Source: a virus. From it: 64,000 nt of DNA. Shown here piece by piece: positions 1 to 15,635 of the stretch. A model generated the notes under the pieces. That model was not told the origin of the DNA and made no database searches. It worked only from the letters and a program-made list of their open reading frames with translations. The stretch's first letter is position 1. Every line of letters starts with the position of its first letter. A program made the translations under genes and the position numbers. The DNA is taken from IMG/VR virus record IMGVR_UViG_3300024978_000122. One strand, written 5' to 3'.

Positions 1-124
1 AACTGCATAGTGAAGCCCGCGAGCAGCCTCACTGCCAAGGATTCCCGCCGAACGGCACCAAACGAGTGCAGGCTTGAAAGTTTTACACTATGCTGTACAC
101 ATTTGCTCACGTTTGGCCACAACC

Positions 125-331
125 ATGACAGCCAGTGCTGACGAGGGGGAAATCCTCACCCTCAAGCAGGTCGCGGACTTCCTGAAGGTCACGGAACGGA
201 CGATCTATCGGTTGGCCGCAGCCGGGAAGATTCCTGCGTTCAAGGTCGGCGGAACGTGGCGATTCTCCAGGGCGGAGATCAATCGATGGATTCAACGGCA
301 GCAAATAGACGGCAAAGCCGATAAGACGTAA
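125..331 (+). CDS. Excisionase-type (HTH_17/MerR-like) DNA-binding protein heading the chaperone operon
   Basis: EILTLKQVADFLKVTERTIYRLAAAGKIPAFKVGGTWRF pattern. ATG at 125 preferred over TTG at 74. Paralog at 12011. Confidence 0.85.
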   Translation: MTASADEGEILTLKQVADFLKVTERTIYRLAAAGKIPAFKVGGTWRFSRAEINRWIQRQQIDGKADKT

Positions 332-344
332 CTCACTGGAGGGC

Positions 345-719
345 TTGATGACTCAGCAGACCGAAGGCAGTGAACAGATGGAGCAATCGCTGATCGACAT
401 CGCGGTCGAGAGTTGGCGCTTTTCGCGTCTGTTCGGAAAAGTCGTCAGCAAACTCGATGCTGGAGAGTCAGGTCGTTACGCCAATCAGCTCCGCTACTTT
501 CAGAAAAAAGTCGAGGAAAGCCTCGAGTCGAGCGGTCTCAAGCTCGTCAATGTCGAAGGGCAGCCTTACGACCCGGGCATGGCGGCCTCCGCTTTGAACG
601 TGGGTGACTTCGGCCCCGACGACGTGCTTCTCGTTGATCAGATGGTCGAGCCAATCATCATGGGGGCGAACGGCCTACGCAAACAAGGCACGGTAATGCT
701 GAGGAAGGTGGAAGCATGA
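345..719 (+). CDS. Short GrpE-like protein (C-terminal GrpE domain only)
   Basis: LESSGLKLVNVEGQPYDPGMAASAL...PIIMGANGLRKQGTVML resembles the GrpE G..FDP...R...V beta domain. Stop overlaps the Hsp70 start (ATGA). Start is 345 or 348. Confidence 0.6.
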   Translation: MMTQQTEGSEQMEQSLIDIAVESWRFSRLFGKVVSKLDAGESGRYANQLRYFQKKVEESLESSGLKLVNVEGQPYDPGMAASALNVGDFGPDDVLLVDQMVEPIIMGANGLRKQGTVMLRKVEA

Positions 720-3205
720 AATACGTTGGGATTGACCTCGGCACGACCAACAGTGCCATCTGCTCCTTCGACGGGGAGAGGATTCAGCTCTACAAGAGCC
801 CGGAGCAGCACGACGTTACGCCTTCCGCGATCTTCATCGACCGGCGTAGCAACAAGTACATCGGGTCGCGCGCCTACATGAACGCCGCACGCAATCCGGA
901 CAACGCCGCGACGCTGTTCAAGCGCCTGATGGGCACCAGCACGCCAGTGAAACTGCCTGCGGTCAATCTAACCATGACGCCAGAGGAGTGCTCTGCCGAG
1001 GTGCTGCGCACTTTATTCGGCTACCTGCCGGAAGAAATTCGGGGGGATGGCGACACGGGCACCGTCATCACGGTGCCTGCCGCCTTCAACCAGATGCAGA
1101 AGGACTCGACGATGGCTGCTGCCGACGCGGCTGGCCTCGGGCGGGTCGCGCTGATGCAAGAGCCAGTCGCCGCCGTGATGAGCGTCATGCGCCAACGGAA
1201 GAACGATGGCGTGTTTGTCGTCTACGACCTCGGTGGCGGCACGCTCGACATTGCCATCGCGGAGAGCATCTCGGGGCGCGTGAACCTGCTGGCCCATGGC
1301 GGCATTGCCATGTGTGGTGGGCGCGATTTCGACCGCATCCTGTTCGACAACGTCGTCAAGCCGTGGCTACTGGAGAACTTCGACCTTCCCGAAGATCTGG
1401 CTGCGAACCCACAGTTCAAGTCTCTGCTGCGCATGGCCACATGGGCGACGGAAAAGGCCAAGATCGAACTCTCGCAGAAGGAGGAAGCGGTTGTCAGCCT
1501 TCCCGAGACTGAGCTGGGCGTCCGTGACCAGTCAGGCGAGGAGATCTACATCGACATCGCGGTTGATCGCAAACGCTACGACGGGCTGATTGCATCGAAG
1601 CTCGAGGAGTCCATCCAGTCCGCCCGCGAAACGCTCGAAAAGGCCGGATTGAGTCCGCACGATGTCGAACGCGTCGTCTTCGTGGGAGGCCCCACGCACT
1701 ACAAGCCCCTGCGCGACAAGGTCGCCTTCGAGCTGGGAATCGCCCCGTCCACCGACGTGAACCCGATGACGGCTGTTGCTGAAGGGGCTGCCGTTTTCGC
1801 CGAATCAATCGACTGGTCGTCGCAAAGCCGTGGGCGCAAAAGTGCTCGTGGCGCAATCAGCGCCGGTGGCTCACTCGACCTCTCGTTCAACTACATCGCG
1901 CGCACGCCAGACTCAAGAGCCAAGATCGTCGCCAAGCTGGGCCGCGCGCCCACGGGCATCGAGTTCCAGATCGACAGCCTTGATACAGGCTGGTCGTCTG
2001 GCCGCGTTGCGCTGAAGGATGGCGCGAGCATCGAACTCAGTCTGACCAAGCCCGGCGACAACACCTTCAAGGTGTTTGTGTTCGACTCCAACGGTGCGCC
2101 CGTCACGTTGGGTGAGGACAAGATCGTCATTGCACGTACCGCTGCCAGTATTGACGCGATTCCGGCGTCACATTCCATTGGCGTGGAAGCGCGCGACAAG
2201 GTCGGGGGTCGCTTGGTGCTGGACTACCTCGTGCGCGAAGGCGATCAACTTCCCAAGAAGGGCAAGAAGACCTTCAAAGCGGGCGAGTCGCTCAAAGCTG
2301 GAAGTGCGGGCTCGATCAAGTTCAAGCTATGGGAAGGCGAGATATCTGACCCGATCAACGACAACCGTTTCATCGGCATGTTCGAGATCAAGGGGTCGGA
2401 CTTCGATGACGGCGTCATCACCGCTGGCGCAGAGATGATCTGCGAGTACGAAGTGCTCGACTCCGGCAACATTCAGTTGGAAGTGTCGGTGCCTTCCATC
2501 AGTGGTTCGTTCAAGAGCGGACGCAACTACTACTCCAGCCAGGAGGGCAAGGTCGACTACACCAGTCAGGCCAAGAACATTCAGGAACAGTCCGAACACA
2601 CGCTGGAACGGCTCGAAGAAATGGCCTCCAAGGTGGACGATCCACGCCTGGAGCAAGCCCGCGAGAAACTGGAGCAGGCAAACACCATCGAGTCCGGGGA
2701 GACCGACCCTGAAACAGCGAAGCAGGCGATGGACAACGTACAGGAGGCCAAACGCCTGCTGGCGCTGACTCGCAAAGAGCACCTGAAGGACATCCGCCAA
2801 CTCGAACTGGACAGGACGGTCGGCTTCTTCGAGAAGGCTGTGCGTCAGCATGCCAGACCGACCGAGACATCGTCGTTCGATAGCTTGGTGAAGACGGCGC
2901 AGCGCGCCATCGACAACAACAGCAACGACTTCGAATCGCACCTAGACGACCTGCGGGGCCGCAACTTCATGATCCTGTGGCGTCAGGATTGGTTCGTGAT
3001 CGACCGCTTCAAGTGGCTGGCCCAGGACACCTACCTTTTCGCCGACCTCCACGAACACGCGCAGTGGGTGGCCGTTGGTACCGAGGCGCTAAAAGCCAAC
3101 GACATCGACAAGCTGCGCGCCGTCGTCGCCAATCTCGACTCCATCCGCATCGGCTCCGCAGGAGAGGACGACATGATGGCGGGCGCGAACATCGTTCGGA
3201 GCTGA
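716..3205 (+). CDS. Atypical Hsp70 (DnaK-family) chaperone ATPase
   Basis: GIDLGTTNS, FKRLMG, VITVPAAF, QEPVAA, YDLGGGTLD and FVGG motifs. 829 aa with an extra domain after the ATPase domain, so not a housekeeping dnaK. Confidence 0.95.
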   Translation: MKYVGIDLGTTNSAICSFDGERIQLYKSPEQHDVTPSAIFIDRRSNKYIGSRAYMNAARNPDNAATLFKRLMGTSTPVKLPAVNLTMTPEECSAEVLRTLFGYLPEEIRGDGDTGTVITVPAAFNQMQKDSTMAAADAAGLGRVALMQEPVAAVMSVMRQRKNDGVFVVYDLGGGTLDIAIAESISGRVNLLAHGGIAMCGGRDFDRILFDNVVKPWLLENFDLPEDLAANPQFKSLLRMATWATEKAKIELSQKEEAVVSLPETELGVRDQSGEEIYIDIAVDRKRYDGLIASKLEESIQSARETLEKAGLSPHDVERVVFVGGPTHYKPLRDKVAFELGIAPSTDVNPMTAVAEGAAVFAESIDWSSQSRGRKSARGAISAGGSLDLSFNYIARTPDSRAKIVAKLGRAPTGIEFQIDSLDTGWSSGRVALKDGASIELSLTKPGDNTFKVFVFDSNGAPVTLGEDKIVIARTAASIDAIPASHSIGVEARDKVGGRLVLDYLVREGDQLPKKGKKTFKAGESLKAGSAGSIKFKLWEGEISDPINDNRFIGMFEIKGSDFDDGVITAGAEMICEYEVLDSGNIQLEVSVPSISGSFKSGRNYYSSQEGKVDYTSQAKNIQEQSEHTLERLEEMASKVDDPRLEQAREKLEQANTIESGETDPETAKQAMDNVQEAKRLLALTRKEHLKDIRQLELDRTVGFFEKAVRQHARPTETSSFDSLVKTAQRAIDNNSNDFESHLDDLRGRNFMILWRQDWFVIDRFKWLAQDTYLFADLHEHAQWVAVGTEALKANDIDKLRAVVANLDSIRIGSAGEDDMMAGANIVRS

Positions 3206-3207
3206 TC

Positions 3208-4647
3208 ATGGCCTTGGAAGCGTGGCTACCTGTTGGATTCCAATTGCCGGATGGCGCACGGGTGCGCATCGCACTGTTCGATGGCGCGGACTGGCAGATC
3301 TGCGAAACGATGGGCGGCGGCCGCGCCCTGATCGCACAGGACACGCTGGCGCAACACTGGGTCGAGGCAGGACTGATCGACGAAGGGACGCTGGATGCCT
3401 TCCAGTTCGGTACCCGTCAACTTCGAACGATTTCCAGCGCGCCGAGCCAGACGCTTTGCCCCGTCAGCGAAGGCAAGTCTCCAGACAACAAGTCCGAGGC
3501 ATTGGCCTTCGCGCTGGCGTTGAAGGCCACGCGCGACATCGACCCAGAGTCGGCGCTGCAAGATGCCTTGTATGTCGAGAAGATCACGCGCTTGCTGCCG
3601 ACCTACAGCATCAGTTCCAGAACCGGCGACGATGTCGTGCTCGGCTACTGGCTGACGGGTGGCACCAACATTCCAGCCAGCTCATTCCGCCGCCTGCGTC
3701 AGTCGATGAGCTGGCTGGGCGCGAGCCACTTGAAGGATGTAGTGCAGGCAGCAGGCTTCGAGGTCGCCGAAATCATCCCGCTCGAACGCCAGCCGGACAC
3801 GCCGACCGAGAAGACCGAGGCTGTTCCCGCTGACGAAAAGACCGGGGCCAAACGCACCGCCCCAGAACCGAACAAGGTGTTCGAACTGGCGGGGCGACCA
3901 GAGTTGGCCGCCTTCTTCAACGAGCACATCGTTGACATCATCCTGCACCGCGAGCGCTACAAGGCACTTGGCATCGAGTTCCCCTCTGCGGTGATCCTGC
4001 ATGGCCCTCCGGGCTGCGGCAAGACCTTTGCTGTCGACAGACTGGTGGACTTCCTCGGCTGGCCGAGCTTCCAGATCGACGCCTCCAGCGTGGCCAGCCC
4101 CTACATCCACGAGACCAGCAAGAAGGTCGCGCAGGTGTTCGACAAGGCGATGGAAAACGCACCGTCTGTGCTCGTGATCGACGAGATGGAGGCGTTCCTC
4201 GCCGACCGCGAAATGGGCTCGGGCCATCACCGTGTGGAAGAAGTGGCCGAGTTCCTGCGTCGCATTCCGGAGGCAGTAAAGAACGACGTGCTGATCATCG
4301 CCATGACGAACCGCATCGAGATGATCGACCCGGCCATCCAGCGCCGGGGGCGCTTCGATCATGTCATCAAGGTGGACTTCGCCAGCGAGGTCGAAGTGCT
4401 GGCACTGCTGGACAAGTTGCTCGCCTCCTTGCCAAAAGAGTCGGATGTGGACGCCAAGCCGCTGGCGAAAGAACTGGCGGGCAGGCCCTTGTCCGACGTC
4501 TCTTTCGTGGTGCGCGAAGGTGCGAGGCTGGCGGCGCGCTCCGGCAAGGATCGCCTGGATCAAACCAGCCTTTTGTCCGCTCTGCGCTCGTCACCGGCGC
4601 GGGAGCGTGAAGGCGGTGAAACCAAGCGACGTATCGGATTTGTTTAG
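3208..4647 (+). CDS. AAA+ ATPase (FtsH/p97/SpoVK-like module) with an uncharacterised N-terminal domain
   Basis: Walker A GPPGCGKT, Walker B VIDEME, SRH MTNRIEMIDPAIQRRGRFD, C-terminal RIGF. ATG 3208 lies 2 nt after the Hsp70 stop. Confidence 0.9.
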   Translation: MALEAWLPVGFQLPDGARVRIALFDGADWQICETMGGGRALIAQDTLAQHWVEAGLIDEGTLDAFQFGTRQLRTISSAPSQTLCPVSEGKSPDNKSEALAFALALKATRDIDPESALQDALYVEKITRLLPTYSISSRTGDDVVLGYWLTGGTNIPASSFRRLRQSMSWLGASHLKDVVQAAGFEVAEIIPLERQPDTPTEKTEAVPADEKTGAKRTAPEPNKVFELAGRPELAAFFNEHIVDIILHRERYKALGIEFPSAVILHGPPGCGKTFAVDRLVDFLGWPSFQIDASSVASPYIHETSKKVAQVFDKAMENAPSVLVIDEMEAFLADREMGSGHHRVEEVAEFLRRIPEAVKNDVLIIAMTNRIEMIDPAIQRRGRFDHVIKVDFASEVEVLALLDKLLASLPKESDVDAKPLAKELAGRPLSDVSFVVREGARLAARSGKDRLDQTSLLSALRSSPAREREGGETKRRIGFV

Positions 4648-4659
4648 GGAGAGGCACTC

Positions 4660-5970
4660 GTGGTCGAGGGGGAAGACAAAAACAAGAAAGACGAAAGCAA
4701 AGGCTTCGCCGGCCTCTCGTCGCTCGTGTCCGATGTGGATACGTCGCCGCCTCCTGCTGCCAAGAGGGAGCCCACCAGCACGTCTGGCGCTTCTTCGAGT
4801 CCACATCCACATCCGCCTCCATCAGCGCAAACGGCACCGGCGCAGCCCCAGCCAAGGCAGCAGCAAACGTATCAAGAGCCTTCGCAACCGTCATCCGGAT
4901 CATCTGGCGGCAAGTGGGTGCTCGGCATCGCGGCTGTCATCGGCGTCCTTTGGTTGATCGGCCAGGCCGACAAGCCCACGACCTCGTCAGCGCCCACCTA
5001 CTCACCACCGGTGCAAAGCGCTGCGCCGAGCTATTCGCCGCCAGCGCAGCCGCAAGAGCCTTCTCGTCCGGCTGAATCTCAGCCGCCGGTTGGGCAAAAC
5101 ACCGTCCTGTCGACAGCGCAGATCCGGTATTGCATGGCCGAGGACATCCGTATGGATGGCGCGAAGGCCGCAGTCAATAACTACATCGACGCCGACGTGG
5201 AACGGTTCAACGCGATGGTGGCCGACTACAACAGCCGTTGCGGCAGCTTCCGCTATCGCAGCGGCGCGCTGGAAAGTGCGCGACGGGACATCGAGCCGTA
5301 CAGGGGCCAGCTTCAGTCTGAAGGCCGGAGCAGATTCGCTCGTCCGTCCACTGGCTCACCTTCGACGCCAGCACCAGTGCAATCCAATCCAAGTACAGCC
5401 GTATCCAGTGCTCAAAGTCGCACCGTCCCCGGCCTTGAGTCACTTACATACGACGAGAAGGATGCTATTGAAACCGCCTGCATCCTGAAACGCAGCGAGG
5501 GAGCAGCCAGCTACAACAGGTGCATATCTGCCCAGATTGCTGCTCTCGCCAATGCACCCCGTACACCTGATTTATCAAGTTTGTCCTATGACGAAAAAGA
5601 TGCCATAGAAACCGCGTGCATTCTGAAACGCAGTGAAGGAGCCGCCAGTTACAACCGCTGTCTAGCCTCTCAACTTAGTGCCCTTTCCAACGCTCCACGC
5701 AAACCTGATCTGTCGGGCTTGTCTTACGACGAAAAGGATGCCATCGAAACTGCATGCATCCTGAAACGTAGCGAGGGAGCCGCCAGTTATAACAGGTGTG
5801 TGGTTGCTCAACTTCGCGCTCTTGCCAATGCACCGCGACTACCCAGCTTGGCAGGGTTGTCCTATGACGAGAAGGATGCCATTGAAACTGCCTGCATCCT
5901 GAAACGCAGTGAAGGGGCCGCAAGCTACAACAGGTGTGTGGTTACTCAACTTCGCGCACTAGGCAGATAG
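4660..5970 (+). CDS. Single-pass membrane protein with Cys-containing extracytoplasmic domain and four C-terminal 46-aa repeats
   Basis: TM segment KWVLGIAAVIGVLWLIG flanked by Pro-rich linkers. GTG start after an AGGGAGAGG RBS. Confidence 0.85.
   Translation: MVEGEDKNKKDESKGFAGLSSLVSDVDTSPPPAAKREPTSTSGASSSPHPHPPPSAQTAPAQPQPRQQQTYQEPSQPSSGSSGGKWVLGIAAVIGVLWLIGQADKPTTSSAPTYSPPVQSAAPSYSPPAQPQEPSRPAESQPPVGQNTVLSTAQIRYCMAEDIRMDGAKAAVNNYIDADVERFNAMVADYNSRCGSFRYRSGALESARRDIEPYRGQLQSEGRSRFARPSTGSPSTPAPVQSNPSTAVSSAQSRTVPGLESLTYDEKDAIETACILKRSEGAASYNRCISAQIAALANAPRTPDLSSLSYDEKDAIETACILKRSEGAASYNRCLASQLSALSNAPRKPDLSGLSYDEKDAIETACILKRSEGAASYNRCVVAQLRALANAPRLPSLAGLSYDEKDAIETACILKRSEGAASYNRCVVTQLRALGR
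5434..5967 (+). repeat. Four tandem 138-bp (46-aa) coding repeats, last one partial
   Basis: Core YDEKDAIETACILKRSEGAASYNRC starts at 5449, 5587, 5725 and 5863, exactly 138 bp apart. Confidence 0.97.
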
Positions 5971-5984
5971 GAGCGATCATCGAT

Positions 5985-8009
5985 ATGGCAATGGCAATCT
6001 GCTTTAAATGCGGTTCTGCAAAATCCGGCGCACTGGTCGCCTGCCGGAGTTGTAATGCTGCGCCGCGCACGAACAGCGAGTATGCCGTTTCGCTCGCGCT
6101 CTCCGACCATCTGTCGTCCAAAGATCAACTGGCCCAGTACAGCCACGAACTTCGCAACGGTCAGAAACTGTCTGTGCCGCGTGAGGCGCTTGTTCAGGCG
6201 CTGGATGCACTGAAAGACCCACAGCTCCTGGCGATGCTCGGCGCGCAAGCAGCAGCTCCCGCTCCAGCACCATCCGCCCCAGCAGCAACCCGACAGCCTC
6301 CACCTGCACCGTCGGCAGCTTCGCAACGGTCAGCCCCGCCGCCACCGTCTATCAGGCCGGAGCGTCGACTCACCAAGACGGCCCTCCATCAGTCCCCGTT
6401 CGCCATCTTGGGCGTGACGACACGCGATGACCGCAGACGCATCGTCGAGCTTGCGGAAGAGAAGTCACTGGAACTGGATCACGAGGTTTGCCAGAAGGCG
6501 CGTTCTGATCTGACCAATCCACGCAACCGACTGAGCGTGGAAATGGCTTGGCTCCCCGGCGTCTCGCCTCGCAAGGCATCTCAACTTTTTGACAGCCTGG
6601 TTCACAACCCGATGGCGATTCGGGAAGAGTCTGGTCTGCCTACGCTGGCACACCTGAACCTGCTGGCCGCTGCATTTGAGGCTGTGGATGGTGAGCACGA
6701 TGCGGACGATTTGGCTGAGTTCATCATGGAGACCGCCTACCTTGCCGAAGAGCTAAGCCCCGAGGATGTCCTGCGCGACCTCAATGAGGATCGCGCCGTC
6801 TCCGGCTTTCCGGAAGTGCGTGCGCTCGACCAGATCGAAGCCGAATTGAACGAGCGCAAGCGGTACTACCGCATCGCCATCAAAGACGCCCTCGACAGAC
6901 TTCCGCCAATGACGCTGATCCAAGTGATGACGGAAGCCGTCGATGGCGTGACTTCGGGCGGTGAAGATCATGCACCGGGGCTGGTCGATGATCTCGTGGA
7001 CAGCTACGAGGTGGAAACCCAAGGCATCCTGCAAAAGGAAGCGGAAAACGTCCACAAGCTCATCAAGGTGGCCAGAGAGCATGCCGACTCCGGCGAAGCA
7101 GCCGTCAAGCCTTACGTGGACAAGCTTGATGTGGTTGCACGTAATTGGGACAAGATCGCCCAGCCCATTCAACTGAGTTCGAAGGCGCGCGGTATCGACC
7201 ACGAAGCGAGCCGTCACTTGGCCTATGAGATTCGTAGCCTCGCTATCGACTTATTCAACAAGCATGACATGTTGGCGCAGTCTCAGCGACTGACCGGTCT
7301 GATTCAGGAGCTTTTTTCTGAAGTACCGGAAATCGCAGATCGAGTTGAGGAAGATGCGGACGCGCTCGCGGACATCTTCCAACAGCGCCAGCAGGCTGTG
7401 GCCCGCAAAGATGAGTGGGCGCGCGAAATATCTTACCGTGCCGAGATTGGCGTCATGTTCAAGGACACTTTGAGCATCTCGCCCCAGGGCGTCTCATGGA
7501 AGGGGCAGAACTTTCCCCTCGACTCGATCACGCGCGTTCGTTGGGGCGGCGTCAGTCATTCTGTCAATGGCATCCCCACAGGAACGACCTACACGATTGC
7601 GTTCGGCAATCGAAGTTCCGAAGCAGTTGTGGAACTGAAGAAGCAGGACATCTACAGCACGTTCATCGACAAGCTCTGGCGTGCGGTCTGCGTGCGTCTG
7701 CTCACCGAAATGCTCGAAGCCCTGAAAGATGGTCGCGATCTGCACTTCGGTGATGCGCTCCTGCACGACGACGGCATCACGCTGGTGAAGCGCAAGTTCC
7801 TCGGCTCCAACGAGAAGGTGCGTTGTTCGTGGGGCCAGGTCCACGTATGGAGTGCTGATGGTTCTTTCTGTATCGGAGCCAAGGACGACAAGAAGGTGAA
7901 TGCCGGGATTTCCTATATTCACGGTGCGAACACGCACGTTTTGGAGCAGGCCATTCGCATGGGTTTCAAGAAGCCTGGGATGCGCCGTTTGAGCGAGCTG
8001 CTGCAGTGA
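5985..8009 (+). CDS. Multidomain protein: N-terminal Zn ribbon, degenerate J-like segment, helical region, C-terminal PH-like domains
   Basis: CFKC..CRSC. SPFAILGV...ARSDLTNPRNRL mimics J-domain helices I and III/IV but has no HPD. C-terminal LSISPQGVSWKG..FPLDSI and LHDDGITL..CSWGQV look bPH-like. Confidence 0.7.
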   Translation: MAMAICFKCGSAKSGALVACRSCNAAPRTNSEYAVSLALSDHLSSKDQLAQYSHELRNGQKLSVPREALVQALDALKDPQLLAMLGAQAAAPAPAPSAPAATRQPPPAPSAASQRSAPPPPSIRPERRLTKTALHQSPFAILGVTTRDDRRRIVELAEEKSLELDHEVCQKARSDLTNPRNRLSVEMAWLPGVSPRKASQLFDSLVHNPMAIREESGLPTLAHLNLLAAAFEAVDGEHDADDLAEFIMETAYLAEELSPEDVLRDLNEDRAVSGFPEVRALDQIEAELNERKRYYRIAIKDALDRLPPMTLIQVMTEAVDGVTSGGEDHAPGLVDDLVDSYEVETQGILQKEAENVHKLIKVAREHADSGEAAVKPYVDKLDVVARNWDKIAQPIQLSSKARGIDHEASRHLAYEIRSLAIDLFNKHDMLAQSQRLTGLIQELFSEVPEIADRVEEDADALADIFQQRQQAVARKDEWAREISYRAEIGVMFKDTLSISPQGVSWKGQNFPLDSITRVRWGGVSHSVNGIPTGTTYTIAFGNRSSEAVVELKKQDIYSTFIDKLWRAVCVRLLTEMLEALKDGRDLHFGDALLHDDGITLVKRKFLGSNEKVRCSWGQVHVWSADGSFCIGAKDDKKVNAGISYIHGANTHVLEQAIRMGFKKPGMRRLSELLQ

Positions 8010-8037
8010 TTTAATCAAGAAATATTGGGGAGTTTTT

Positions 8038-8682
8038 ATGGGGTTTCTGTCGAACCTGTTCGGGGGCAATAAAGAGGACAAGGCGCTGCGCGAGGCATTG
8101 GCGCAGATTCACCGCATCCTCGATGACGAAGCATTCCAGTTGGAACTCGTCCATCCTGCAATGAAGGCGATGCTGGAGTCGGCTCCCGCCTATGACAAAG
8201 ACCCGAACGGCAGCGGCCCTTTCGGCTTCACCGAGTCCAATCCGATTCCAGTCAACGGGCCAATCGGCCAGCTGGCGTATCTGTCCAAACTCGAAACCCA
8301 GTCTGGTCAGCGCATCCTTTTTCATCGTCTCGGTGCCATCGACACGGTAGACGTGTTCGAGGCCGTGACGTTCAACGGTGCAGAGTGGTTCATCCTGTTC
8401 GTTGATCTTTACCATCCGCGACGCTCGCGCCTCACCCCGGACGGTTTCCGTTTCACGAAAGAGGTCGCGCAGTTCTCCGGCTTCCACAAGTTTTGCGAGA
8501 ACTTTCCCTACGACTTCGTCGAGAAGAAGGCGTCCGAGCGCGAATCGGGACTGAGCATGGCCTACATCGCCATCAGCAAGGTGTCCGACCAAATCCAGAA
8601 TCGAGTCTTCAATCGGCCGCTGGCTCACAAGGCCAAGCTCGATCTCGTGAAGAGCCGGTTGTCGAGCTTCCAATCCCAATAG
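8038..8682 (+). CDS. Hypothetical protein with amphipathic N-terminus
   Basis: Clean in-operon ORF with MGFLSNLFG start and a GPFGFTESNPIPVNG...AYLSKL motif. Function unknown. Confidence 0.75.
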   Translation: MGFLSNLFGGNKEDKALREALAQIHRILDDEAFQLELVHPAMKAMLESAPAYDKDPNGSGPFGFTESNPIPVNGPIGQLAYLSKLETQSGQRILFHRLGAIDTVDVFEAVTFNGAEWFILFVDLYHPRRSRLTPDGFRFTKEVAQFSGFHKFCENFPYDFVEKKASERESGLSMAYIAISKVSDQIQNRVFNRPLAHKAKLDLVKSRLSSFQSQ

Positions 8683-8691
8683 GTGACGCCG

Positions 8692-9180
8692 ATGAAGAAA
8701 CCGCTTCTCGCGACGCTCGCCGCATTGATGGGCCTCCAGGCCGCACCCGCCCTGGCCGAGAACTACGAGGTGAACCTGACCCGCAAGGGCAGTAACGTTT
8801 ACAAGATTGACGGCAAGGACATCATCATCCAGACACGCTACTGCTACGTCTACGCCTACTCTGAGGAGGCGATCTTCAAGACGTCAGGCTACGGCGGCGA
8901 GGTGATTTTCTTCGACAGCAAGGACAAATGCGATGTGAAGGCGGTCTTTGGCGTGTCGAAGCAGAAGCCGGGGAAATACGTGGTGACAGTCAGCCATGAG
9001 GACGACGACTGGTATGAGGTTTTTGGAACCAGCTCGTACATCAAGACATCAAGCTGCCTGTCTCTTGCCCTTGGCGAGGAGGCTTACCTGACCATTGCGA
9101 ATTCCGGGTTCGGAAGACTGCGCTTCAAAGATGGCAACGACTGCATGGTCGAAGCCGTTTACACCAAGCTGCGGCTATGA
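8692..9180 (+). CDS. Secreted protein with two tandem beta-rich Cys-pair domains
   Basis: Signal peptide MKKPLLATLAALMGLQAAPALA. Internal duplication YEVNLTRKGSNVY..C..EEA..C versus YVVTVSHEDDDWY..C..EEA..C. Confidence 0.8.
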   Translation: MKKPLLATLAALMGLQAAPALAENYEVNLTRKGSNVYKIDGKDIIIQTRYCYVYAYSEEAIFKTSGYGGEVIFFDSKDKCDVKAVFGVSKQKPGKYVVTVSHEDDDWYEVFGTSSYIKTSSCLSLALGEEAYLTIANSGFGRLRFKDGNDCMVEAVYTKLRL

Positions 9181-9197
9181 GAGGGAGATGATGAACC

Positions 9198-10250
9198 GTG
9201 GCTGCTGCTGACGACAAACAAAAGGGAGGTGCCACAGGCTTCTCCGGTCTTTCGACACTCGTCTCCGATGTCGAAGACAACCGTCCTGCCAGCAAAACTG
9301 CGCCGGAAGTCGCCCCGCCGCCGAGCAACCCACCGCCTCCAGAACCTACGCCCACACGGGCCGAGGACGCCCCGGCTGCATCCACCGCACCTCAATCGCC
9401 CAACGGAAAAAGCGACAGTTCTTCCGATGTGACCACCGGCAAATGGATGGTCGGCATCGGGTTGGGAATCGGGCTTCTGCTCATCATCTTCGTCAACTCA
9501 AGCAAGAACGAGTCTACCCGCCCGGTTGCGGCTCCCGCCGCACAGACCCCGGTCGCTGCTGTCCCCGCCTATCAACCGCCACCTCCCCCGCCAGTCACGC
9601 CGAGGCAGCAGCCCACCCAAGAGGCGGTCATCCGGCGAAGCGCCGCCACGGAATCCGTGAACGTGCTCGGCCAGCAGGTTGTGTTCTCGAACCCAAGCGG
9701 CTACTGCACACCGGGCAAGTCGGCACGGGAAATCGAACTGATGGACATGGCACGGCGTTCCCTCGGAGAAGGTTCTCGCCTCGTGCATGCCGCAGTCCTT
9801 TGTTCAGAACTGAAGGACTACAGGCAGGGCCAGCGGGAAATGCTGGATCACTGGCTGCAAATCCAACTCATCGGGCCGAAGGGAAATTTCCAGCGAATCG
9901 AGGTACCGCGCGAGACGTTCCTGTCCGGCCTTTCCAAGTCGAGTCCGCGGGTGAATCCTGCCGAACTCAATCGACGGCTGAAGGCGTCGTTCGAGAACAG
10001 CGACATCAGCCTGTCCGACATGAAGTTTGAGCCGATTGGGCGGGACGGCAACGCGGTCTATTTTTCCATGCGAATGAACATGAGCATTGGGGAAACCAGC
10101 CGACCGATTTCCGGGATCAGCGGAATCACCCTTCTAAACTCTCTCCCTCTGTCGATCAACGTCTATGAAGGCACCGGCTCGCAGCAGAGCCGTGGCCAGT
10201 TGCAGGCCATCCAGCAGGAGTTGCTGAACAGCCTCCTCACCGAGAACTGA
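9198..10250 (+). CDS. Single-pass membrane protein, N-terminally paralogous to 4660..5970, with a different extracytoplasmic domain
   Basis: GFSGLSTLVSDV motif, Pro-rich linker, TM KWMVGIGLGIGLLLIIFV. Confidence 0.85.
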   Translation: MAAADDKQKGGATGFSGLSTLVSDVEDNRPASKTAPEVAPPPSNPPPPEPTPTRAEDAPAASTAPQSPNGKSDSSSDVTTGKWMVGIGLGIGLLLIIFVNSSKNESTRPVAAPAAQTPVAAVPAYQPPPPPPVTPRQQPTQEAVIRRSAATESVNVLGQQVVFSNPSGYCTPGKSAREIELMDMARRSLGEGSRLVHAAVLCSELKDYRQGQREMLDHWLQIQLIGPKGNFQRIEVPRETFLSGLSKSSPRVNPAELNRRLKASFENSDISLSDMKFEPIGRDGNAVYFSMRMNMSIGETSRPISGISGITLLNSLPLSINVYEGTGSQQSRGQLQAIQQELLNSLLTEN

Positions 10251-10903
10251 TGATGAACAGAGCAAGATCAACATTCGCCGCCCTGTACCTCTGCTTGCTG
10301 GCCGTGGTCGCCCTGCCAGTCGCCGCGCAGACGACGGGCCATACCAAGCTCAACGTCAAAGGCCGAGTGCAACTCGAAATCCCGAGCGACTGGACAATCA
10401 GCGATGCGGAACAGCGAAAGCGCGTCAAGGAGTTTGGAGAGAAGCTCGTCGGGATTCCAACTCAGCACACTGCCTCACTTGCGGCGCAGTCCTACCCCGC
10501 GCCGTCACGAACGATGGTCAGGGTGTCGTTCATCCCGATGGAGCCACCAATCACTCAGGCCGATGTGCGGCAGGAAGTCCAAGCGAACAAGCAGCAGGTG
10601 CTGAAGGACTTGGCTGATACCTGGCGGGAAGAGGCCCCGACGATGTGGGCGGGTTTGGCAAAGAACGGTGTGAAAGAAGTGGGCCGCGCCAGCGTTGCCG
10701 TCGAGCCACTTGGCGGCCAGCTCGCCCTGATTATTCGCTACGCGCGCACCTCGACTGCCAATCCGGCCGAGACCATGAGAGTGACCCAGTACCACGTGCC
10801 TCTGGGCGCTGAAAAGGCGCTGATCACGCTTTCGTACATTGAGAGCGATCCGCAAGCGACAGCAGCACACAACCGATTGAAGAACAGCATCGTGATCCGA
10901 TAA
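10250..10903 (+). CDS. Secreted/periplasmic protein, possibly PsbP/DcrB-like fold
   Basis: Signal peptide ending in AVVALPVAA. VQLEIPSDW, GGQLALIIRY and ALITLSY resemble the PsbP/DcrB pattern. Fold assignment is tentative. Confidence 0.6.
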   Translation: MMNRARSTFAALYLCLLAVVALPVAAQTTGHTKLNVKGRVQLEIPSDWTISDAEQRKRVKEFGEKLVGIPTQHTASLAAQSYPAPSRTMVRVSFIPMEPPITQADVRQEVQANKQQVLKDLADTWREEAPTMWAGLAKNGVKEVGRASVAVEPLGGQLALIIRYARTSTANPAETMRVTQYHVPLGAEKALITLSYIESDPQATAAHNRLKNSIVIR

Positions 10904-10921
10904 GAAGAGCAGGAACCGCCA

Positions 10922-11551
10922 ATGGCCTACGAAGATCCCAACGCACCGTCGCCCGCCTCCAACAACCAGGCCCAACAATCAACGTCGCCTGTTGATCAAA
11001 GCAAGAGCTTTCTTGGCGGGCAACATCACCCGTGGCGACGATTGTTCGCGCGCACGGTCGATATCTGCACGGCAGGATTCCTGCTGTTCCTGATCCTGAT
11101 ATTCGCTTTTAGCGCAACGATGCCCGAACAGGCGGCGGGCTTTGCAAAGGCAATAGAGAATCCGATTGTCGCCAGCGTCGTGCTGTATTTGATCTGGCTG
11201 CCTGCTGAGGCGGTGCTGCTGTCGTTGTTCGGGACGACTCCGGCCAAGTGGCTGTTCGGCATCAAGGTCGCGCACCCTGGAGGCGGCTTGCTGTCCTTTT
11301 CGGAGTCGCTGAACCGCTCGTTTCTGGTCTTTGTTCAGGGCGTCGGGTTCGGCATTCCATTCGTCGCACTGTTCACGCAGTTGTTCGCGTATCGGCGGCT
11401 GACGAAAACGGGCACGACGCTGTGGGATACATCGACAAGCGCGGAGGTGCTTCACAGAAAGTGGGGCGTGTTCCGCGCGCTCATGTGTACTGCCGCCGTG
11501 TTCGCCGTACTGATTCTGATGAGTGCCTTGAACGCGGCAGGCAATCGATAA
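10922..11551 (+). CDS. RDD family membrane protein
   Basis: HPWRRLFARTVD, GTTPAKWLFGIKV, RSFL and LWD..T.V motifs; multiple TM segments. Confidence 0.88.
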   Translation: MAYEDPNAPSPASNNQAQQSTSPVDQSKSFLGGQHHPWRRLFARTVDICTAGFLLFLILIFAFSATMPEQAAGFAKAIENPIVASVVLYLIWLPAEAVLLSLFGTTPAKWLFGIKVAHPGGGLLSFSESLNRSFLVFVQGVGFGIPFVALFTQLFAYRRLTKTGTTLWDTSTSAEVLHRKWGVFRALMCTAAVFAVLILMSALNAAGNR

Positions 11552-11569
11552 CGACAACAGGAGGAACCA

Positions 11570-11860
11570 ATGGCATACGAAGACCCCAACGCGCCGTCAC
11601 AGCCCCAGACGCGCGCGCCTGCCGCACCTGCAGCAGCACCAGCGGCCACACCCGAAAAGAAGTCCGGCTCATGGGACTGGCTGTGGCCGTCCATTGTTGC
11701 GGTCATCATCGTCAAGGTGTTCGGCCTCGTTGGCGGCCTGGTTACCTTTGGCTGCTACTACTGGCTCAAACCGAAGCTGGGAACGTGGGGCGCGGTTGCT
11801 GCCTCCGGCGTCATCGGCGTGGTGGTTGCCATCGGCCTCATGGCAATGATTCGTAGCTGA
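11570..11860 (+). CDS. Small 2-TM membrane protein sharing the N-terminal MAYEDPNAPS with the RDD protein
   Basis: GGAGGAA RBS, two hydrophobic segments, first 10 aa identical to those of 10922. Confidence 0.8.
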   Translation: MAYEDPNAPSQPQTRAPAAPAAAPAATPEKKSGSWDWLWPSIVAVIIVKVFGLVGGLVTFGCYYWLKPKLGTWGAVAASGVIGVVVAIGLMAMIRS

Positions 11861-11920
11861 TCCTTCCCGCTGCTCAGCGCACCGACTCGCTCGTAGCTGT
11901 TTCCCGCCACGCCACCGACT

Positions 11921-11935
11921 GACCGAGCCTCGGTC
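11921..11935. promoter_or_regulatory. Perfect 15-bp palindrome upstream of the RM operon, candidate operator
   Basis: GACCGAG-C-CTCGGTC about 75 bp upstream of the HTH gene at 12011. Function inferred only from position. Confidence 0.3.
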
Positions 11936-12010
11936 TGGCCGACGTCGCCCAAACGTGGGAGAATTGGCAGGATTTGGCAATCATATTTCAACGTCGGCAA
12001 GGGCAAGGCG

Positions 12011-12214
12011 ATGGCAGACGCAGAAGACGAAATCCTCACGCTGGATGAAGTCGCGGCCTACCTGAAGGCGGGCAAGCGCACGGTCTACCGGCTCGCGGCG
12101 GACAAGAAGATCCCGGCGTTCAAGCTCGGCGGCACTTGGCGGTTCCGCAAGGCCGATCTGGAGCAGTGGATTGCGCAGCAAACAACAGGCGGCCAACGCG
12201 AGGGGAACGCATGA
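12011..12214 (+). CDS. Excisionase-type HTH protein heading the RM operon (controller-like)
   Basis: EILTLDEVAAYLKAGKRTVYRLAADKKIPAFKLGGTWRF. Overlaps the hsdM start (ATGA). Confidence 0.88.
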   Translation: MADAEDEILTLDEVAAYLKAGKRTVYRLAADKKIPAFKLGGTWRFRKADLEQWIAQQTTGGQREGNA

Positions 12215-14604: not shown

Positions 14605-15635
14605 GCCAGCGCAACGAGCTTCTGGCGTCCATCGCCAACACGATCCAGGACTACCGGGGCGGCTCGCTCCCGCAGCCCATTCCCGACCATGTCGAGCGTT
14701 GGGTGCAGCAGTTCGACGCCGCCGTGCAGTTGCCCATCCTGCAAGAGATCGACCATGTCCTGAAGAAGATCTACTTCTCGAAGGAGGACGTGGCGAAGTT
14801 TCTCCGTGGCGCGATGCGCACCCAGAAACTCACCGGCGACAGACCCGACAAGTTCTGGCGATCCGCCAGCTTCCTCGACATCCAGGGCGGTGGCAGCAGC
14901 CAGACCGACATGCTCGCCCTGTTCTCCGAGCAGCTGGAGGAAGAGCATGGATTTGGCATCGACGACTGCGGGCAAGGCGACGAAGTCTTCATCTATCTGG
15001 ATGACGGCATCTTCACCGGCAACCGCGTGCGGCGCGACCTGGAGAATTGGATTCGTGATCACGCGCCCGCGCAGGCGAAGGTGCATGTGATCTGCATCGC
15101 CCAGCACAGTGGCGGGCAGTATTACGCAAGCGGCAAGATTCAAGACGCCATCAGAGCCTCGGGCAAGACCATTGGCATCACTTGGTGGCGTGCCATCGAG
15201 CTGGAGGACAGGCGGGCCTACAGCGCAACGGCGGACGTGTTGCGCCCGACGGCGATCCCGAACGATCCTGCGGTGCAAGCCCATGTGGCGGCCATGCGGT
15301 ACCCGCCCACGCTCAGAGCCGCTGGCAACCCCGGCGCTGCGGGTCTGTTCTCCAGCGACGCGGCCAAGATTCTGCTGGAGCAGGAGTTCCTGAAGGCCGG
15401 CGTCCACATCCGCCAGATTTGCCCCAACCTCGGTGACACCCAGCGCCCGCTGGGCCACATGACGTTGGAGACGCTGGGCTTCGGCTCGCTCATCGTCACT
15501 TACCGCAACTGCCCCAACAACGCGCCACTGGCGTTCTGGGTGGATGCACCGTGGTATCCGCTGTTCCCGCGCACCACGAATACGCAAACGGCAGTGCGCA
15601 GGATGTTTGCGAGTCTGACCGGAGACGATCTCTGA
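14601..15635 (+). CDS. Phosphoribosyltransferase-like protein (PRTase-CE type)
   Basis: PRPP-loop FIYLDDGIFTG at 14988-15020. C-terminal GFGSLIVTYRNCPNN.P.AFW..WYPLFPR. Coupled to hsdM (ATGA) and to the next gene (TGATG). Confidence 0.75.
   Translation: MSQRNELLASIANTIQDYRGGSLPQPIPDHVERWVQQFDAAVQLPILQEIDHVLKKIYFSKEDVAKFLRGAMRTQKLTGDRPDKFWRSASFLDIQGGGSSQTDMLALFSEQLEEEHGFGIDDCGQGDEVFIYLDDGIFTGNRVRRDLENWIRDHAPAQAKVHVICIAQHSGGQYYASGKIQDAIRASGKTIGITWWRAIELEDRRAYSATADVLRPTAIPNDPAVQAHVAAMRYPPTLRAAGNPGAAGLFSSDAAKILLEQEFLKAGVHIRQICPNLGDTQRPLGHMTLETLGFGSLIVTYRNCPNNAPLAFWVDAPWYPLFPRTTNTQTAVRRMFASLTGDDL

Follow-up and report, generated by a model that had tools for sequence, protein, structure and literature searches.

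A mobile Hsp70 cassette coupled to a Cdc48-like AAA+ ATPase and tagged envelope proteins

Gene Content and Extent of the Cassette

The IMG/VR virus record IMGVR_UViG_3300024978_000122 (64,000 nt, here called the window) opens with a run of chaperone and envelope-protein genes, which raises the question of whether these genes form one system and what that system might do. The first-pass annotation had described 12 co-directional genes at 345–11860. ORF calls gave 12 tightly packed genes, all on the + strand, at 74–11860, with intergenic gaps of −4 to +28 nt (Table 1). The co-direction and close spacing were thus as described, but only 11 of the genes lie within 345–11860, and the twelfth is the HTH gene upstream of them. 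The start of the AAA+ gene, previously placed at 2977 where the long ORF begins, was corrected to 3208, and g5 most likely starts at 5985, judging from its orthologues. TM segments and signal-peptide-like N-termini were assigned from a hydropathy scan; together with Pfam, this recovered the two secreted proteins, the RDD protein and the small membrane protein of the earlier description as g7 and g9, g10, and g11, respectively.

Table 1. Positions of genes, domains and motifs of the cassette in the window.
Feature	Position (nt)	Strand	Basis
HTH_17 (AlpA/excisionase-type) small regulator, first gene of the block	74..331	+	Pfam HTH_17, E 3e-19
g1, 124-aa predicted GrpE-like nucleotide-exchange factor	345..719	+	weak GrpE matches, complex model
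Hsp70, 829 aa	716..3205	+	Pfam Hsp70 NBD, E 4e-57
Hsp70 NBD, aa 1–365	716–1810	+	Pfam HSP70 covers only aa 4–363
Hsp70 inserted beta-rich segment, ~115 aa	1811–2155	+	
Hsp70 SBD-beta-like region, starting at IPASHSIGVE	2159–~2500	+	consensus conserved in 43 representatives
Hsp70 long helical tail	to 3205	+	
AAA+ ATPase, 479 aa	3208..4647	+	Pfam AAA, E 7e-30
AAA+ Walker A	4003–4026	+	
AAA+ pore loop, SPYIHE	4096–4113	+	
AAA+ Walker B	4168–4191	+	
AAA+ RRGRFD	4342–4359	+	
g4, single-pass inner-membrane protein	4660..5970	+	hydropathy scan; tag comparison
g4 N-terminal tag GFAGLSSLVSDV	4702–4737	+	
g4 four identical 27-aa Cys repeats	5443–5937	+	
g5, 674-aa adaptor	5985..8009	+	start common to orthologues
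g5 Zn ribbon (a Pro-rich linker follows)	6000–6053	+	
g5 HPD-less J-like segment	6393–6560	+	
g5 helical body	to ~7430	+	
g5 tandem PH-like domain	7431–8006	+	
g6, 214-aa cytoplasmic protein	8038..8682	+	L024 homologue at 53% identity
g7, 165-aa protein, signal-peptide-like N-terminus	8683..9180	+	weak lipoprotein-signal hint
g8, second tagged single-pass membrane protein, TM aa 78–96	9198..10250	+	hydropathy scan; tag comparison
g8 tag GFSGLSTLVSDV	9237–9272	+	
g9, 217-aa protein with signal peptide	10250..10903	+	hydropathy scan
g10, RDD-family four-TM membrane protein	10922..11551	+	Pfam RDD, E 3.5e-18
g11, 96-aa two-TM protein, last gene of the block	11570..11860	+	hydropathy scan

This gene order is also seen in P. 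aeruginosa and in Shewanella, at 77–96% amino acid identity per gene except for g4 (56–68%), and in one further genome. The HTH_17 gene accompanies the cassette in the P. aeruginosa ICE, the Shewanella Tn7-like element and genome G123 (74–79% amino acid identity). Such recurrence of the block is far beyond chance, and the coupling of an Hsp70/GrpE-like/J-like/AAA+ set to envelope proteins, noted in the first-pass annotation, is borne out; the set is preserved as a unit across genomes. The right boundary is sharp: at the nucleotide level, homology with the copy in the P. aeruginosa ICE stops at window position 11853, and a type I RM operon (Pfam) lies immediately downstream.

The Cassette Is Layered

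Comparison of ~15 loci, in which core and variable genes could be told apart, showed that the genes do co-occur elsewhere and fall into three layers. The universal triad, consisting of the GrpE-like protein, the ~830-aa Hsp70 and the HPD-less J-like protein, was present in every examined locus with this Hsp70 type, over a range of Hsp70 identity from 37% to 93%. The mobile five-gene core further contains an AAA+ ATPase with a single p97/Cdc48-like module and a GFxGL-tagged membrane protein that spans the membrane once. Genes g6–g11 are accessory and co-occur only in the 11-gene cassette type; g6 was found without the other accessory genes in one other variant (L024). The distribution is patchy (3/400 and 5/400 genomes, or ~1%). 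Several copies have decayed, so the cassette is dispensable; some of these have lost the Hsp70 or AAA+ gene and kept the membrane-protein genes.

The Hsp70 and Its Partners

The Hsp70 had been called atypical with intact ATPase motifs, an accurate description: none of the catalytic residues D7, K69, E149, D171 and T176 varies among 43 family representatives, and family members align over their full length at identities as low as 27%. Among PDB structures, the DnaK NBD is the best match (E 2.5e-52).

In every examined locus with this Hsp70 type, a homologue of g1 lies upstream of the Hsp70 gene, in one case as part of a fusion with a larger protein; in the window, the g1 stop codon overlaps the Hsp70 start (ATGA). 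The g1 protein lacks the long N-terminal helix of GrpE. It matches Pfam GrpE in the correct register with E 0.18, and its profile matches GrpE from PDB 4ANI with E 0.38, values that are not significant alone; one Atlas cluster reached in the g1 search carries GrpE in part. A model of the g1–NBD complex scored 0.63, compared to 0.00 for the best control; 58 of 80 solved complexes attained such a mark, as did 2 of 110 mismatched pairs. Contacts agreed between runs to at least 66%, the partner pLDDT was 83 or higher, and the modelled interface comprised NBD residues 29–63 and 235–280. This supports a GrpE-like mode of binding between g1 and the ATPase domain, in agreement with its initial designation as a mini-GrpE. 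The pass of this complex may partly reflect the model's memory of DnaK–GrpE structures.

The third member of the triad, g5, had been described as a J-like/PH-like protein. The second half of this description held up: the AF2 model of aa 125–674 (pLDDT 89.6) consists of a helical body and a tandem PH-like domain, with PH/PTB structure matches at Z 7.9–8.6. The first half did not pass its defining test, since the HPD position is not conserved in the J-like head anywhere in the family, and the g5 sequence profile matched no J domain in the PDB. Relatives in AFDB include proteins named "J domain-containing protein", DUF304/bPH proteins, a PG-binding fusion and a fusion of DnaK to this PH-like tail. 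A g5 family member was present in every examined locus with this Hsp70 type. We propose that g5 may be a specificity co-chaperone with an HPD-less J-like head; because the HPD is missing throughout the family, stimulation of the ATPase by g5 is only putative.

The AAA+ ATPase and the Tagged Membrane Proteins

The AAA+ ATPase comprises an N-domain (aa 1–~230) followed by one p97/Cdc48-like AAA module. Its identification, made at first pass, is secured by the Pfam match and by intact Walker A, Walker B, sensor-1 and Arg-finger motifs. The best PDB matches are the D1 and D2 modules of p97/VCP/Cdc48 (E 1.7e-50).

In g4, the N-terminal tag is followed by a Pro-rich linker, a TM segment (aa 82–100) and a conserved periplasmic Cys-containing module (QIRYC, YNSRC). 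PG_binding_1 is present in the g4 orthologues but absent from the window copy; it occurs in 68/80 members of the tagged family. Proteins g4 and g8, previously regarded as paralogues, are indeed both single-pass and have the N-terminal tag in common, but their ectodomains are unrelated, and the g4 ectodomain is swapped between close relatives. Tag residues G14, F15, G17 and L18 are invariant in eight membrane proteins sharing 26–62% identity. Among 11 loci, the GFxGL tag was found in 6/7 AAA+ variants, compared to 0/4 AAA-less variants; L016, an AAA+ locus, has no tag on its contig.

Of the accessory proteins, g10 and g11 begin with a common decapeptide, MAYEDPNAPS, and g7 is restricted to the 11-gene cassette type. 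No match to g6 was found in Pfam, PADLOC, PHROG or NCBIfam, and its Atlas neighbours are unnamed; g9 had no family match.

Mobile Carriers

The block is carried by P. aeruginosa ICEs, by Tn7-like transposons on Aeromonas and Shewanella plasmids, and by other genomes, and has moved as a unit between three unrelated carriers. Homologues had been expected near mobile or defence genes. The first holds for all AAA+ variants with informative flanks, which lie on or beside mobile-element genes (L008, L016 and L024 lack such flanks and stand outside this tally); the settings are an ICEclc-type ICE, a Tn7-like transposon, an ICE with an F-type T4SS, a MobA element and an IS-flanked site. Known defence genes, on the other hand, are adjacent to AAA+ variants only sometimes. 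PDC-S06, AIPR and PglZ genes are present in the same P. aeruginosa ICEs as the cassette; the flanks of L012, L013 and L023 contain no known defence genes and have mobility genes instead. The AAA-less triads sit among housekeeping genes in ordinary chromosomal neighbourhoods, and the wider Hsp70 family is therefore not intrinsically a defence family.

A Model for the Machine and Its Role

On these data, the block is very probably a self-contained Hsp70 machine that is tethered to the membrane and travels as mobile-element cargo. In the model we envisage, g1 would act as a truncated GrpE-type exchange factor across ATPase subdomains IB and IIB, while the tandem PH-like (bacterial PH/PTB-like) tail of g5 would direct it to the membrane or to a peptide. 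The mobile subfamily would bring in a single-ring p97/Cdc48-like unfoldase, together with at least one single-pass inner-membrane protein. Each tagged protein would present a free N-terminal GFxGL tag and a flexible, Pro-rich tail of ~60 aa to the cytoplasm; its periplasmic domain would be stabilised by Cys residues and would usually bind peptidoglycan. The tagged proteins, as the machine's own clients or sensors, would receive Hsp70 on their tails by way of g5; the AAA+ ring could then grip the free N-terminus and pull, reset or extract the protein, thereby coupling the state of the cell wall to an ATP-driven switch in the cytoplasm. That the tagged proteins are clients is rather more probable than the contrary. 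The products of g6–g11 (two secreted proteins, a second tagged receptor, and the RDD and small proteins with a second common N-terminal peptide) may add inputs or outputs.

The benefit to element and host would most plausibly lie in envelope-level conflict or in defence, whether against phage or against DNA entering the cell. This anti-phage reading is suggested by the status of the cassette as mobile-element cargo and by its occasional adjacency to RM or candidate defence genes; we hold it tentatively. For architecture, mechanism and role taken together, we would put the explanation just short of an even chance.

As noted at the outset, no nuclease or classical toxic effector is apparent: the five-gene core contains no recognised nuclease, protease, pore-former or other effector. 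All recognisable parts are chaperone/unfoldase and envelope proteins, as would also be expected of an envelope-proteostasis or stress-tolerance cargo that maintains, inserts or recycles its own wall-anchored membrane proteins or repairs the envelope, with no role against phage or foreign DNA, and that benefits the host under envelope stress in the manner of transmissible protein-quality-control islands. The Tn7 copies adjoin mercury and cadmium resistance genes on wastewater and clinical plasmids, operon contigs are present in metatranscriptome libraries that four studies made from wastewater and sludge, and the AAA-less relatives occupy the housekeeping contexts described above. We nevertheless consider this explanation unlikely, since the clients of the Hsp70 appear to be dedicated, tagged proteins and not general substrates; small heat-shock proteins, ClpK/ClpG and protease partners are absent; the rarity of the cassette and its swapped ectodomains look more conflict-like; and an RM operon is adjacent in the window.

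A function in establishment or transfer of the element, such as entry or surface exclusion or wall remodelling for the conjugation apparatus, is improbable. The cassette does lie among transfer genes in two ICE types, with the helicase region on one side and TraG/DUF2859 genes on the other in P. aeruginosa and flanked by TraW and TraU in L023, and its tagged membrane proteins usually carry a predicted PG-binding domain (PG_binding_1); but these ICEs use unrelated T4SS types, the L023 cassette is inverted relative to the tra genes, the Tn7-like copies place it directly after tnsE in an element without its own conjugation machinery, and in the window it is followed by the RM operon, not by transfer genes. 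Equally little probability attaches to an addiction module that stabilises the element because one of the membrane proteins (a tagged one, RDD or g11) becomes toxic when not continuously held or extracted by Hsp70/AAA+: the tight translational coupling, the conserved N-terminal peptides as potential degron-like handles and the existence of chaperone-dependent TA systems (TAC) speak for it, but the decayed copies described above would be lethal under strict addiction, and the 11-gene block far exceeds known addiction modules in size.

Comparison with Known Systems

A full-text literature search found no description of the cassette, which is not matched to any described system in the searchable literature. 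It is likewise unnamed in PADLOC, which has no model for the cassette as such; the only signal is a partial match of the AAA+ protein to IetA (PADLOC E 5e-26; NCBIfam 88 bits, cutoff 510). The likeness to IetAS extends only to the generic AAA module, and the cassette has no IetS-like protease.

Hsp70 paralogues also occur in other multi-gene systems that are variable and spread horizontally. Among the conflict systems predicted by comparative genomics, GAP1-N2 GTPase systems combine HSP70 with GrpE and the J-domain partner DnaJ-FNIII (PMC7159879), and CoCoNuT has an Hsp70, CnuD, whose ATPase motifs are degenerate (PMC11090510). Unlike the cassette, in which Pfam detected no GTPase, McrB or HEPN genes, these systems are built around GTPases, McrBC or nucleases, and they lack a Cdc48-like AAA+ protein, a tandem-PH adaptor and GFxGL-tagged PG-binding proteins.

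The pairing of an Hsp70 with a substrate-threading AAA+ protein resembles DnaK–ClpB, Cdc48/p97 and Msp1-type extraction. The AAA module is closest to p97/Cdc48 D1/D2 and has the pore-loop aromatic residue, and the candidate clients are membrane proteins whose cytoplasmic terminus is free and flexible; that the cassette extracts proteins is our inference. It differs in having one AAA module instead of two, no ClpB M-domain, and no recognisable ubiquitin-like or adaptor system.

A further parallel is HscC of E. coli with DjlB/DjlC, where an Hsp70 outside the housekeeping set likewise has a membrane-associated co-chaperone dedicated to it. At 556 aa, HscC is short, and DjlB/DjlC keep the HPD; HscC is not known to have a private GrpE, an AAA+ partner or tagged PG-binding proteins. 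We saw no sequence relationship between the two Hsp70s beyond the NBD.

With DnaK–DnaJ–GrpE the cassette shares the actin-fold NBD and its complete set of catalytic residues, as well as an SBD-beta-like region and a helical lid; a GrpE-like partner is encoded directly upstream and modelled on the IB/IIB face of the NBD, and a third partner starts with a J-like helical segment. Compared to DnaK, the hydrophobic interdomain linker is replaced by the ~115-aa insert and the helical tail is long, while the exchange factor is without the long N-terminal helix and the J-like partner has a tandem PH-like tail in addition to lacking the HPD. Rather than a housekeeping set, the cassette is a rare, mobile one with membrane proteins of its own.

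Organization and Expression of the Cassette

The cassette comprises 12 ORFs on the + strand of the window (74-11860), spaced by -4 to +28 nt. Within it, Pfam matches were limited to the HTH_17 regulator, the nucleotide-binding domain (NBD) of the Hsp70 (aa 4-363), the AAA+ ATPase and the RDD protein. A hydropathy scan placed one membrane (TM) segment each in g4 and g8, and the N-termini of g7 and g9 were signal-peptide-like. PHROGs, NCBIfam and Pfam at E ≤ 10 returned nothing useful for g4-g9 and g11, and Atlas feature searches with g1, g5 and g6 gave unnamed clusters only. The AAA+ gene most likely starts at the ATG that lies two bases past the Hsp70 stop. On the strength of the ORF layout, the Pfam matches and the hydropathy results, the co-directional 12-gene cassette described in the first-pass annotation was correct in substance. 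Its interpretation as a trans-envelope sensing and remodelling system was partly supported.

Genes of the cassette and their positions in the window
Feature	Position	Strand	Basis
HTH_17 regulator	74-331	+	Pfam HTH_17
g1	345-719	+	ORF
Hsp70, 829 aa	716-3205	+	Pfam, NBD aa 4-363
AAA+ ATPase, 479 aa	from ATG at 3208 (most likely start)	+	Pfam AAA
g4	4660-5970	+	one TM segment (hydropathy scan)
g5	5985-8009	+	ORF
g6, g7, g8, g9	between g5 and RDD, in order	+	ORFs
RDD protein (g10)	between g9 and g11	+	Pfam RDD; four TM segments (hydropathy scan)
g11	11570-11860	+	two TM segments (hydropathy scan)

Contigs of four metatranscriptome libraries from four studies (bioreactor, sludge and two wastewater) span most of 121-12200 at ~95-99% identity. 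Transcription of the operon in situ is weakly supported by this, since DNA carry-over is possible and presence in an RNA library is no proof. In the assembly (626 contigs, 83% complete), the window is represented only from 4093 on, a point inside the AAA+ gene at the pore-loop codons, and one metatranscriptome contig likewise stops at 4093. Because the AAA+ gene is continuous and matches its orthologues across this junction, the latter looks like a strain-variant assembly break.

The Hsp70 and Its GrpE-Like Partner

The NBD of the Hsp70 has the actin fold of PF00012 (Pfam E = 4e-57) and matches the DnaK NBD structures in the PDB at E = 2.5e-52. Its catalytic residues, D7, K69, E149, D171 and T176, are invariant in 43 representatives, bearing out the earlier description of an atypical Hsp70 with intact ATPase motifs. 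The short hydrophobic linker that in PF00012 leads straight to the β part of the substrate-binding domain (SBD-β) and the helical lid was not found. Instead, the Pfam and PDB alignments end at aa ~363 and are followed by a ~115-aa segment, a family consensus (IPAxHSIGxEV...LWEGE...NxxIG...SGxIxxxVxVP) and a long helical tail. Recognised by eye in the family alignment, this consensus reads like the SBD-β of DnaK.

The likeness of g1 to GrpE was less direct. Its match to the Pfam GrpE family (PF01025; aa 38-78 to profile positions 83-123) had an E-value of 0.18, below significance, as was the match of an eight-sequence g1 profile to G. kaustophilus GrpE (PDB 4ANI; E = 0.38), which fell in the same register; the single sequence had no match in the PDB. 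With 124 aa, g1 lacks the long N-terminal paired helices of GrpE, and the alignment begins at the four-helix-bundle region.

In the DnaK-GrpE crystal structure, GrpE uses subdomains IB and IIB of DnaK. The NBD, modelled together with two g1 chains, gave an ipSAE of 0.63, compared to 0.00 for the best control and judged by a mark that 58 of 80 solved complexes and 2 of 110 mismatched pairs reached; because a family with a solved complex may pass from model memory, we take this as a GrpE-like likeness and a plausible interface, not as binding. The partner pLDDT was at least 83, and contacts agreed between runs to at least 66%. The modelled contacts join NBD residues 29-63 and 235-280, which we take to be subdomains IB and IIB by offset from the DnaK numbering, to residues 24-31 and 76-117 of g1, and the invariant W-R pair of g1 is located at this interface. 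The proposed mini-GrpE is favoured by the exchange-factor face that g1 occupies in the model, and the sequence matches are weak hints to it.

The g5 Adaptor

An AF2 model of g5 from its single sequence was unusable (pLDDT 49.7) and was replaced by one from a 15-row alignment, with a mean pLDDT of 89.6 for residues 125-674. The model consists of a short helical head, a helical body of ~290 aa and two beta-sandwich-plus-helix units. These units form a tandem of PH-like (DUF304) folds, with strands at 360-427 of the model and a helix at 430-457 in the first, and strands at 462-519 and a helix at 526-537 in the second (pLDDT ~90). Structural matches were of moderate Z (VIA-align: Sin1 PH, 8.6; MTMR6, 8.1; IRS-1 PH-PTB, 7.9), and the fold searches were dominated by the larger domains of the model. 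Tandem-PH histone chaperones were matched among the Swiss-Prot models; in AlphaFold-DB, the C-terminal units resemble DUF304 (bacterial PH) proteins and a DnaK fused to a like tail. Foldseek found nothing in the PDB at E ≤ 0.001.

AlphaFold-DB relatives of g5 whose alignment begins at their residue 3 carry the name "J domain-containing protein", and one relative is a PG-binding protein bearing the g5 helical domain. The J domain (PF00226) had no Pfam match in g5, and a PDB profile search gave designed coiled coils only. In the 15 family members, the position of the HPD motif reads LDHE, LDPQ, YDHD, IDQE, LNAH, SDAD, DTSG or LDDE. This position is unconserved in all 15, so that by the defining criterion g5 is not a J-domain protein, although it may have descended from one. 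Of the earlier label "J-like/PH-like", the PH-like half stands in the tandem units of the model, but the J-like half lacks its HPD.

The AAA+ ATPase and the Tagged Membrane Proteins

The AAA+ protein carries a Walker A motif (GPPGCGKT), a Walker B motif (VLVIDEME), sensor 1 (AMTN) and arginine fingers (RRGRFD), and its pore loop, SPYIHE, supplies an aromatic residue. The best PDB matches were p97/VCP/Cdc48, to both the D1 and D2 modules (E = 1.7e-50), but there is a single AAA module (aa ~237-451) where Cdc48 proper has D1 and D2 in tandem and a double-psi-barrel N domain. For the N-terminal 230 aa, no family match or relatives were detected in Pfam (E ≤ 10), the PDB or PHROGs.

Both g4 and g8 carry an N-terminal GFxGL peptide, here called the tag, of which residues G14, F15, G17 and L18 are invariant in eight membrane proteins of 26-62% identity. 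All eight also have a single TM segment, a linker rich in Pro and, in the periplasm, a module with a conserved Cys. Among homologues of a divergent tagged member, 68 of 80 have a PG_binding_1 domain, several together with Cys-rich repeats. In the window, g4 has lost PG_binding_1 and kept four 27-aa Cys repeats (5443-5937), which do not differ in amino acid sequence.

The P. aeruginosa orthologue of g4 has PG_binding_1 followed by four repeats that are related to those in the window but different (…EAACSTDKYVNGPAAYNRC…). A second N-terminal peptide is shared within the cassette, beside the tag of g4 and g8: g10 and g11 begin with the identical decapeptide MAYEDPNAPS (10922-10951 and 11570-11599).

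Distribution of the Hsp70 Family and Its Partners

A search of 1.84 billion representatives showed the ~830-aa Hsp70 family to be large, with end-to-end alignment down to 27% identity. The Hsp70 was found in 3 genomes when 400 of the phylum were sampled, and in 5 when 400 of the class were. Besides the window and its near copies, 15 loci were compared. In every examined locus with this Hsp70 type, a g1 homologue lies directly upstream of the Hsp70 gene, fused in one locus (L009) to the C-terminus of a 590-aa protein. Each of these loci further encodes a protein that starts with the J-like segment of g5 (NPFxxL...RD...NPRxRxxAExxWLPG); in L010 this protein has 313 aa and was overlooked by tblastn. 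These three genes thus form a universal triad.

The AAA+ gene is found in seven variants with 43-87% Hsp70 identity (the window type and loci L008, L012, L013, L016, L023 and L024) and is absent from four (L009, L010, L014 and L015). Of the seven AAA+ variants, six encode a membrane protein that starts with GF[AS]GL and has its TM segment 50-90 residues further on; none of the four variants without the AAA+ gene does so. We refer to the triad together with the AAA+ and the tagged protein as the five-gene core. As for the remaining genes, g6 recurs in one other variant (L024), and g7-g11 are confined to the 11-gene cassette type (g1-g11) to which the window copy belongs. The division into core and variable genes is therefore a layered one, with the triad in every examined locus, the AAA+ gene in seven variants and g7-g11 in one type.

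On the ENA contig P0161, a 1544-aa protein consists of a second Hsp70 fused to an Hsp70 of the ~830-aa family. It is encoded next to a 162-aa protein, TPR/SH3_3 proteins and a TPR-repeat Ser/Thr kinase, which suggests that the partner sets are quite different in distant branches.

Mobile Carriers and Genomic Neighbourhood

Near-identical relatives (84-100%) of the Hsp70 and g5 number in the hundreds, in metagenomes and in genomes labelled Pseudomonas aeruginosa, Bordetella, Ottowia, Xanthomonas, Stenotrophomonas, Thiobacillus and Hydrogenophaga. All twelve genes recur in P. aeruginosa within an ICEclc/PAGI-2-like backbone, with DUF3577, DUF3275, DUF6094 and SNF2 helicase genes upstream and DUF2859, TraG and DtrJ-like genes downstream. 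Copies of the block with ~80% nucleotide identity stand directly behind tnsABCDE of a Tn7-like transposon, one on an IncP plasmid of Aeromonas caviae and one on a megaplasmid of Shewanella xiamenensis. The block recurs as a unit. Per gene, the window shares 77-96% amino acid identity with the P. aeruginosa and plasmid copies, except for g4, in which the ectodomain is swapped. Nucleotide homology to the P. aeruginosa copy stops at 11853, beyond which a type I RM operon follows in the window and transfer genes in the ICE.

All AAA+ variants with informative flanks lie in or beside mobile-element genes; the flanks of L008, L016 and L024 were uninformative. Two of these settings are the ICEclc-type ICE and the Tn7-like transposon; the others are an F-type T4SS ICE, with the copy placed between traW and traU and oriented against them, a MobA-relaxase element and an IS-flanked site. 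The AAA-less triads are set among ordinary chromosomal genes.

The RM operon immediately downstream in the window (12136-17635) contains hsdM (N6_Mtase and HsdM_N), followed by a PRTase-CE protein (E = 5e-61) and a single ORF in which NADAR (E = 4e-23) is joined to a Methylase_S specificity domain. A PADLOC scan of the genes flanking L008, L012 and L016 gave one weak SNase-type match only.

Several loci have further genes or lesions of their own. The P. aeruginosa cassette ICEs have a separate variable slot after the DtrJ-like gene (17249-20627 in L020; 19439-20627 in L021) that holds a PDC-S06 candidate defence ATPase (E = 1e-209) and an AIPR protein, or in other strains PglZ (BREX-type). Downstream of the core in L008 (10611-12159) are genes for a secreted SNase-like nuclease (Pfam SNase; PADLOC "SNc+LTD", E = 1e-7) and an HD_4 protein, which may be local add-ons. 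In L012, from the Marinobacter-like genome G259, five co-directional genes without family assignment (939-5366) lie upstream of the core and are separated from it by an IS (rve); the last has a weak MotA/ExbB match (E = 9e-4). A decayed copy in P. aeruginosa CP159308 (L018, 1-9982) has fragmented Hsp70, AAA+, g4, g5 and g8 genes, and on A. caviae pKAM471_1 (L017, 12603-15100) the Hsp70 gene is split in two.

Proposed Mechanism and Role

The system is built on a conserved Hsp70 with intact catalytic residues. It is always accompanied by a GrpE-like partner, modelled on the exchange-factor face, and by the g5 adaptor with its tail of membrane- or peptide-binding type. In the mobile subfamily, a threading-type AAA+ co-occurs with membrane proteins in which a long flexible tail exposes an invariant, free N-terminal peptide. 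We propose that the tagged membrane proteins are clients or sensors, to which g5 would recruit the Hsp70. The AAA+ ring would then grip the free N-terminus and pull on or extract the tagged protein, which could make an ATP-driven switch in the cytoplasm depend on the state of the peptidoglycan. The main support for this scheme is the co-occurrence of the tag and the AAA+ gene (six of seven against none of four, a small sample), together with the fusions in relatives, which join a J-like body to a PG-binding domain and a DnaK to a PH tail.

A role in conflict or defence is quite possible, if short of probable. In its favour are the carriage as cargo on four kinds of mobile element, the rarity and patchiness of the system, the swapped ectodomains, the RM operon adjoining the cassette here, and the PDC-S06, AIPR and PglZ genes in the P. 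aeruginosa cassette ICEs. Against it, no effector is recognisable in the cassette, as the first-pass annotation had stated for classical toxic effectors, the adjacency to defence genes is inconsistent, the Tn7 copies lie near metal-resistance genes, and some copies are decayed. More specifically, and only tentatively, the core may be a chaperone/unfoldase immune system of a new class, in which tagged, PG-bound proteins report a breach of the wall and the triad and AAA+ pull on or extract them, with no nuclease or nucleotide signal. The trigger would be an infecting phage, or a conjugation or injection apparatus on its way in, that breaches or remodels the wall, and the output would be blocked DNA entry or collapse of the membrane. 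Such a defence system would add a mechanism without a nucleic-acid-targeting component.

The cassette could instead serve envelope maintenance or stress tolerance, which we consider rather unlikely; the cassette would then be a bacterial analogue of AAA+-driven membrane-protein extraction. A function in transfer of the element is improbable, and we would give addiction just as little weight.

On ICEs, plasmids and Tn7-like transposons, the cassette is shared at >85% identity by Pseudomonas aeruginosa, Stenotrophomonas, Xanthomonas, Bordetella, Aeromonas, Shewanella and wastewater communities. It thus circulates among clinical and environmental bacteria, and its function is therefore under current selection there.

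Comparison with Known Systems

A scan of ten cassette proteins against PADLOC-DB 2.0 yielded no system model that fits the cassette; the AAA+ alone gave partial IetA and TRIP13 matches. IetAS was rejected, since there is no protease and the AAA+ score is sub-threshold, and so was a generic heat-resistance island, since there is no sHSP, ClpK or FtsH. The full-text literature searched held no description of the cassette, most subscription journals lying outside the search, so that an earlier report is possible. Within this scope, the earlier remark of not being aware of a characterised system with such a composition holds: the cassette is a real, widespread, mobile-element-borne Hsp70/AAA+ module for which we found no published description.

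To our knowledge, bacterial Hsp70 paralogues beyond DnaK and HscA are almost unstudied. The cassette offers a compact, transferable and testable example, with a private exchange factor, an HPD-less J-like partner, a domain in place of the allosteric linker, a single-ring Cdc48-like unfoldase and candidate clients marked by a tag.

Hsp70 proteins also occur in predicted conflict systems, namely the GAP1-N2 GTPase systems, with HSP70, GrpE and DnaJ-FNIII (PMC7159879), and CoCoNuT, as CnuD (PMC11090510). These systems centre on GTPases, McrBC or nucleases, none of which the cassette has, and membership in either was rejected because there is no GTPase, McrB or HEPN gene. In its proposed workings the cassette resembles a DnaK/GrpE/J-protein cycle coupled to an AAA+ unfoldase, on the pattern of DnaK-ClpB or of Hsp70 with Cdc48. 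It departs from these in a g1 that, compared to canonical GrpE, is without the long helices and matches below threshold, in a g5 that, unlike J-domain proteins, has no HPD, and in an AAA+ protein that has a single module compared to Cdc48 proper.
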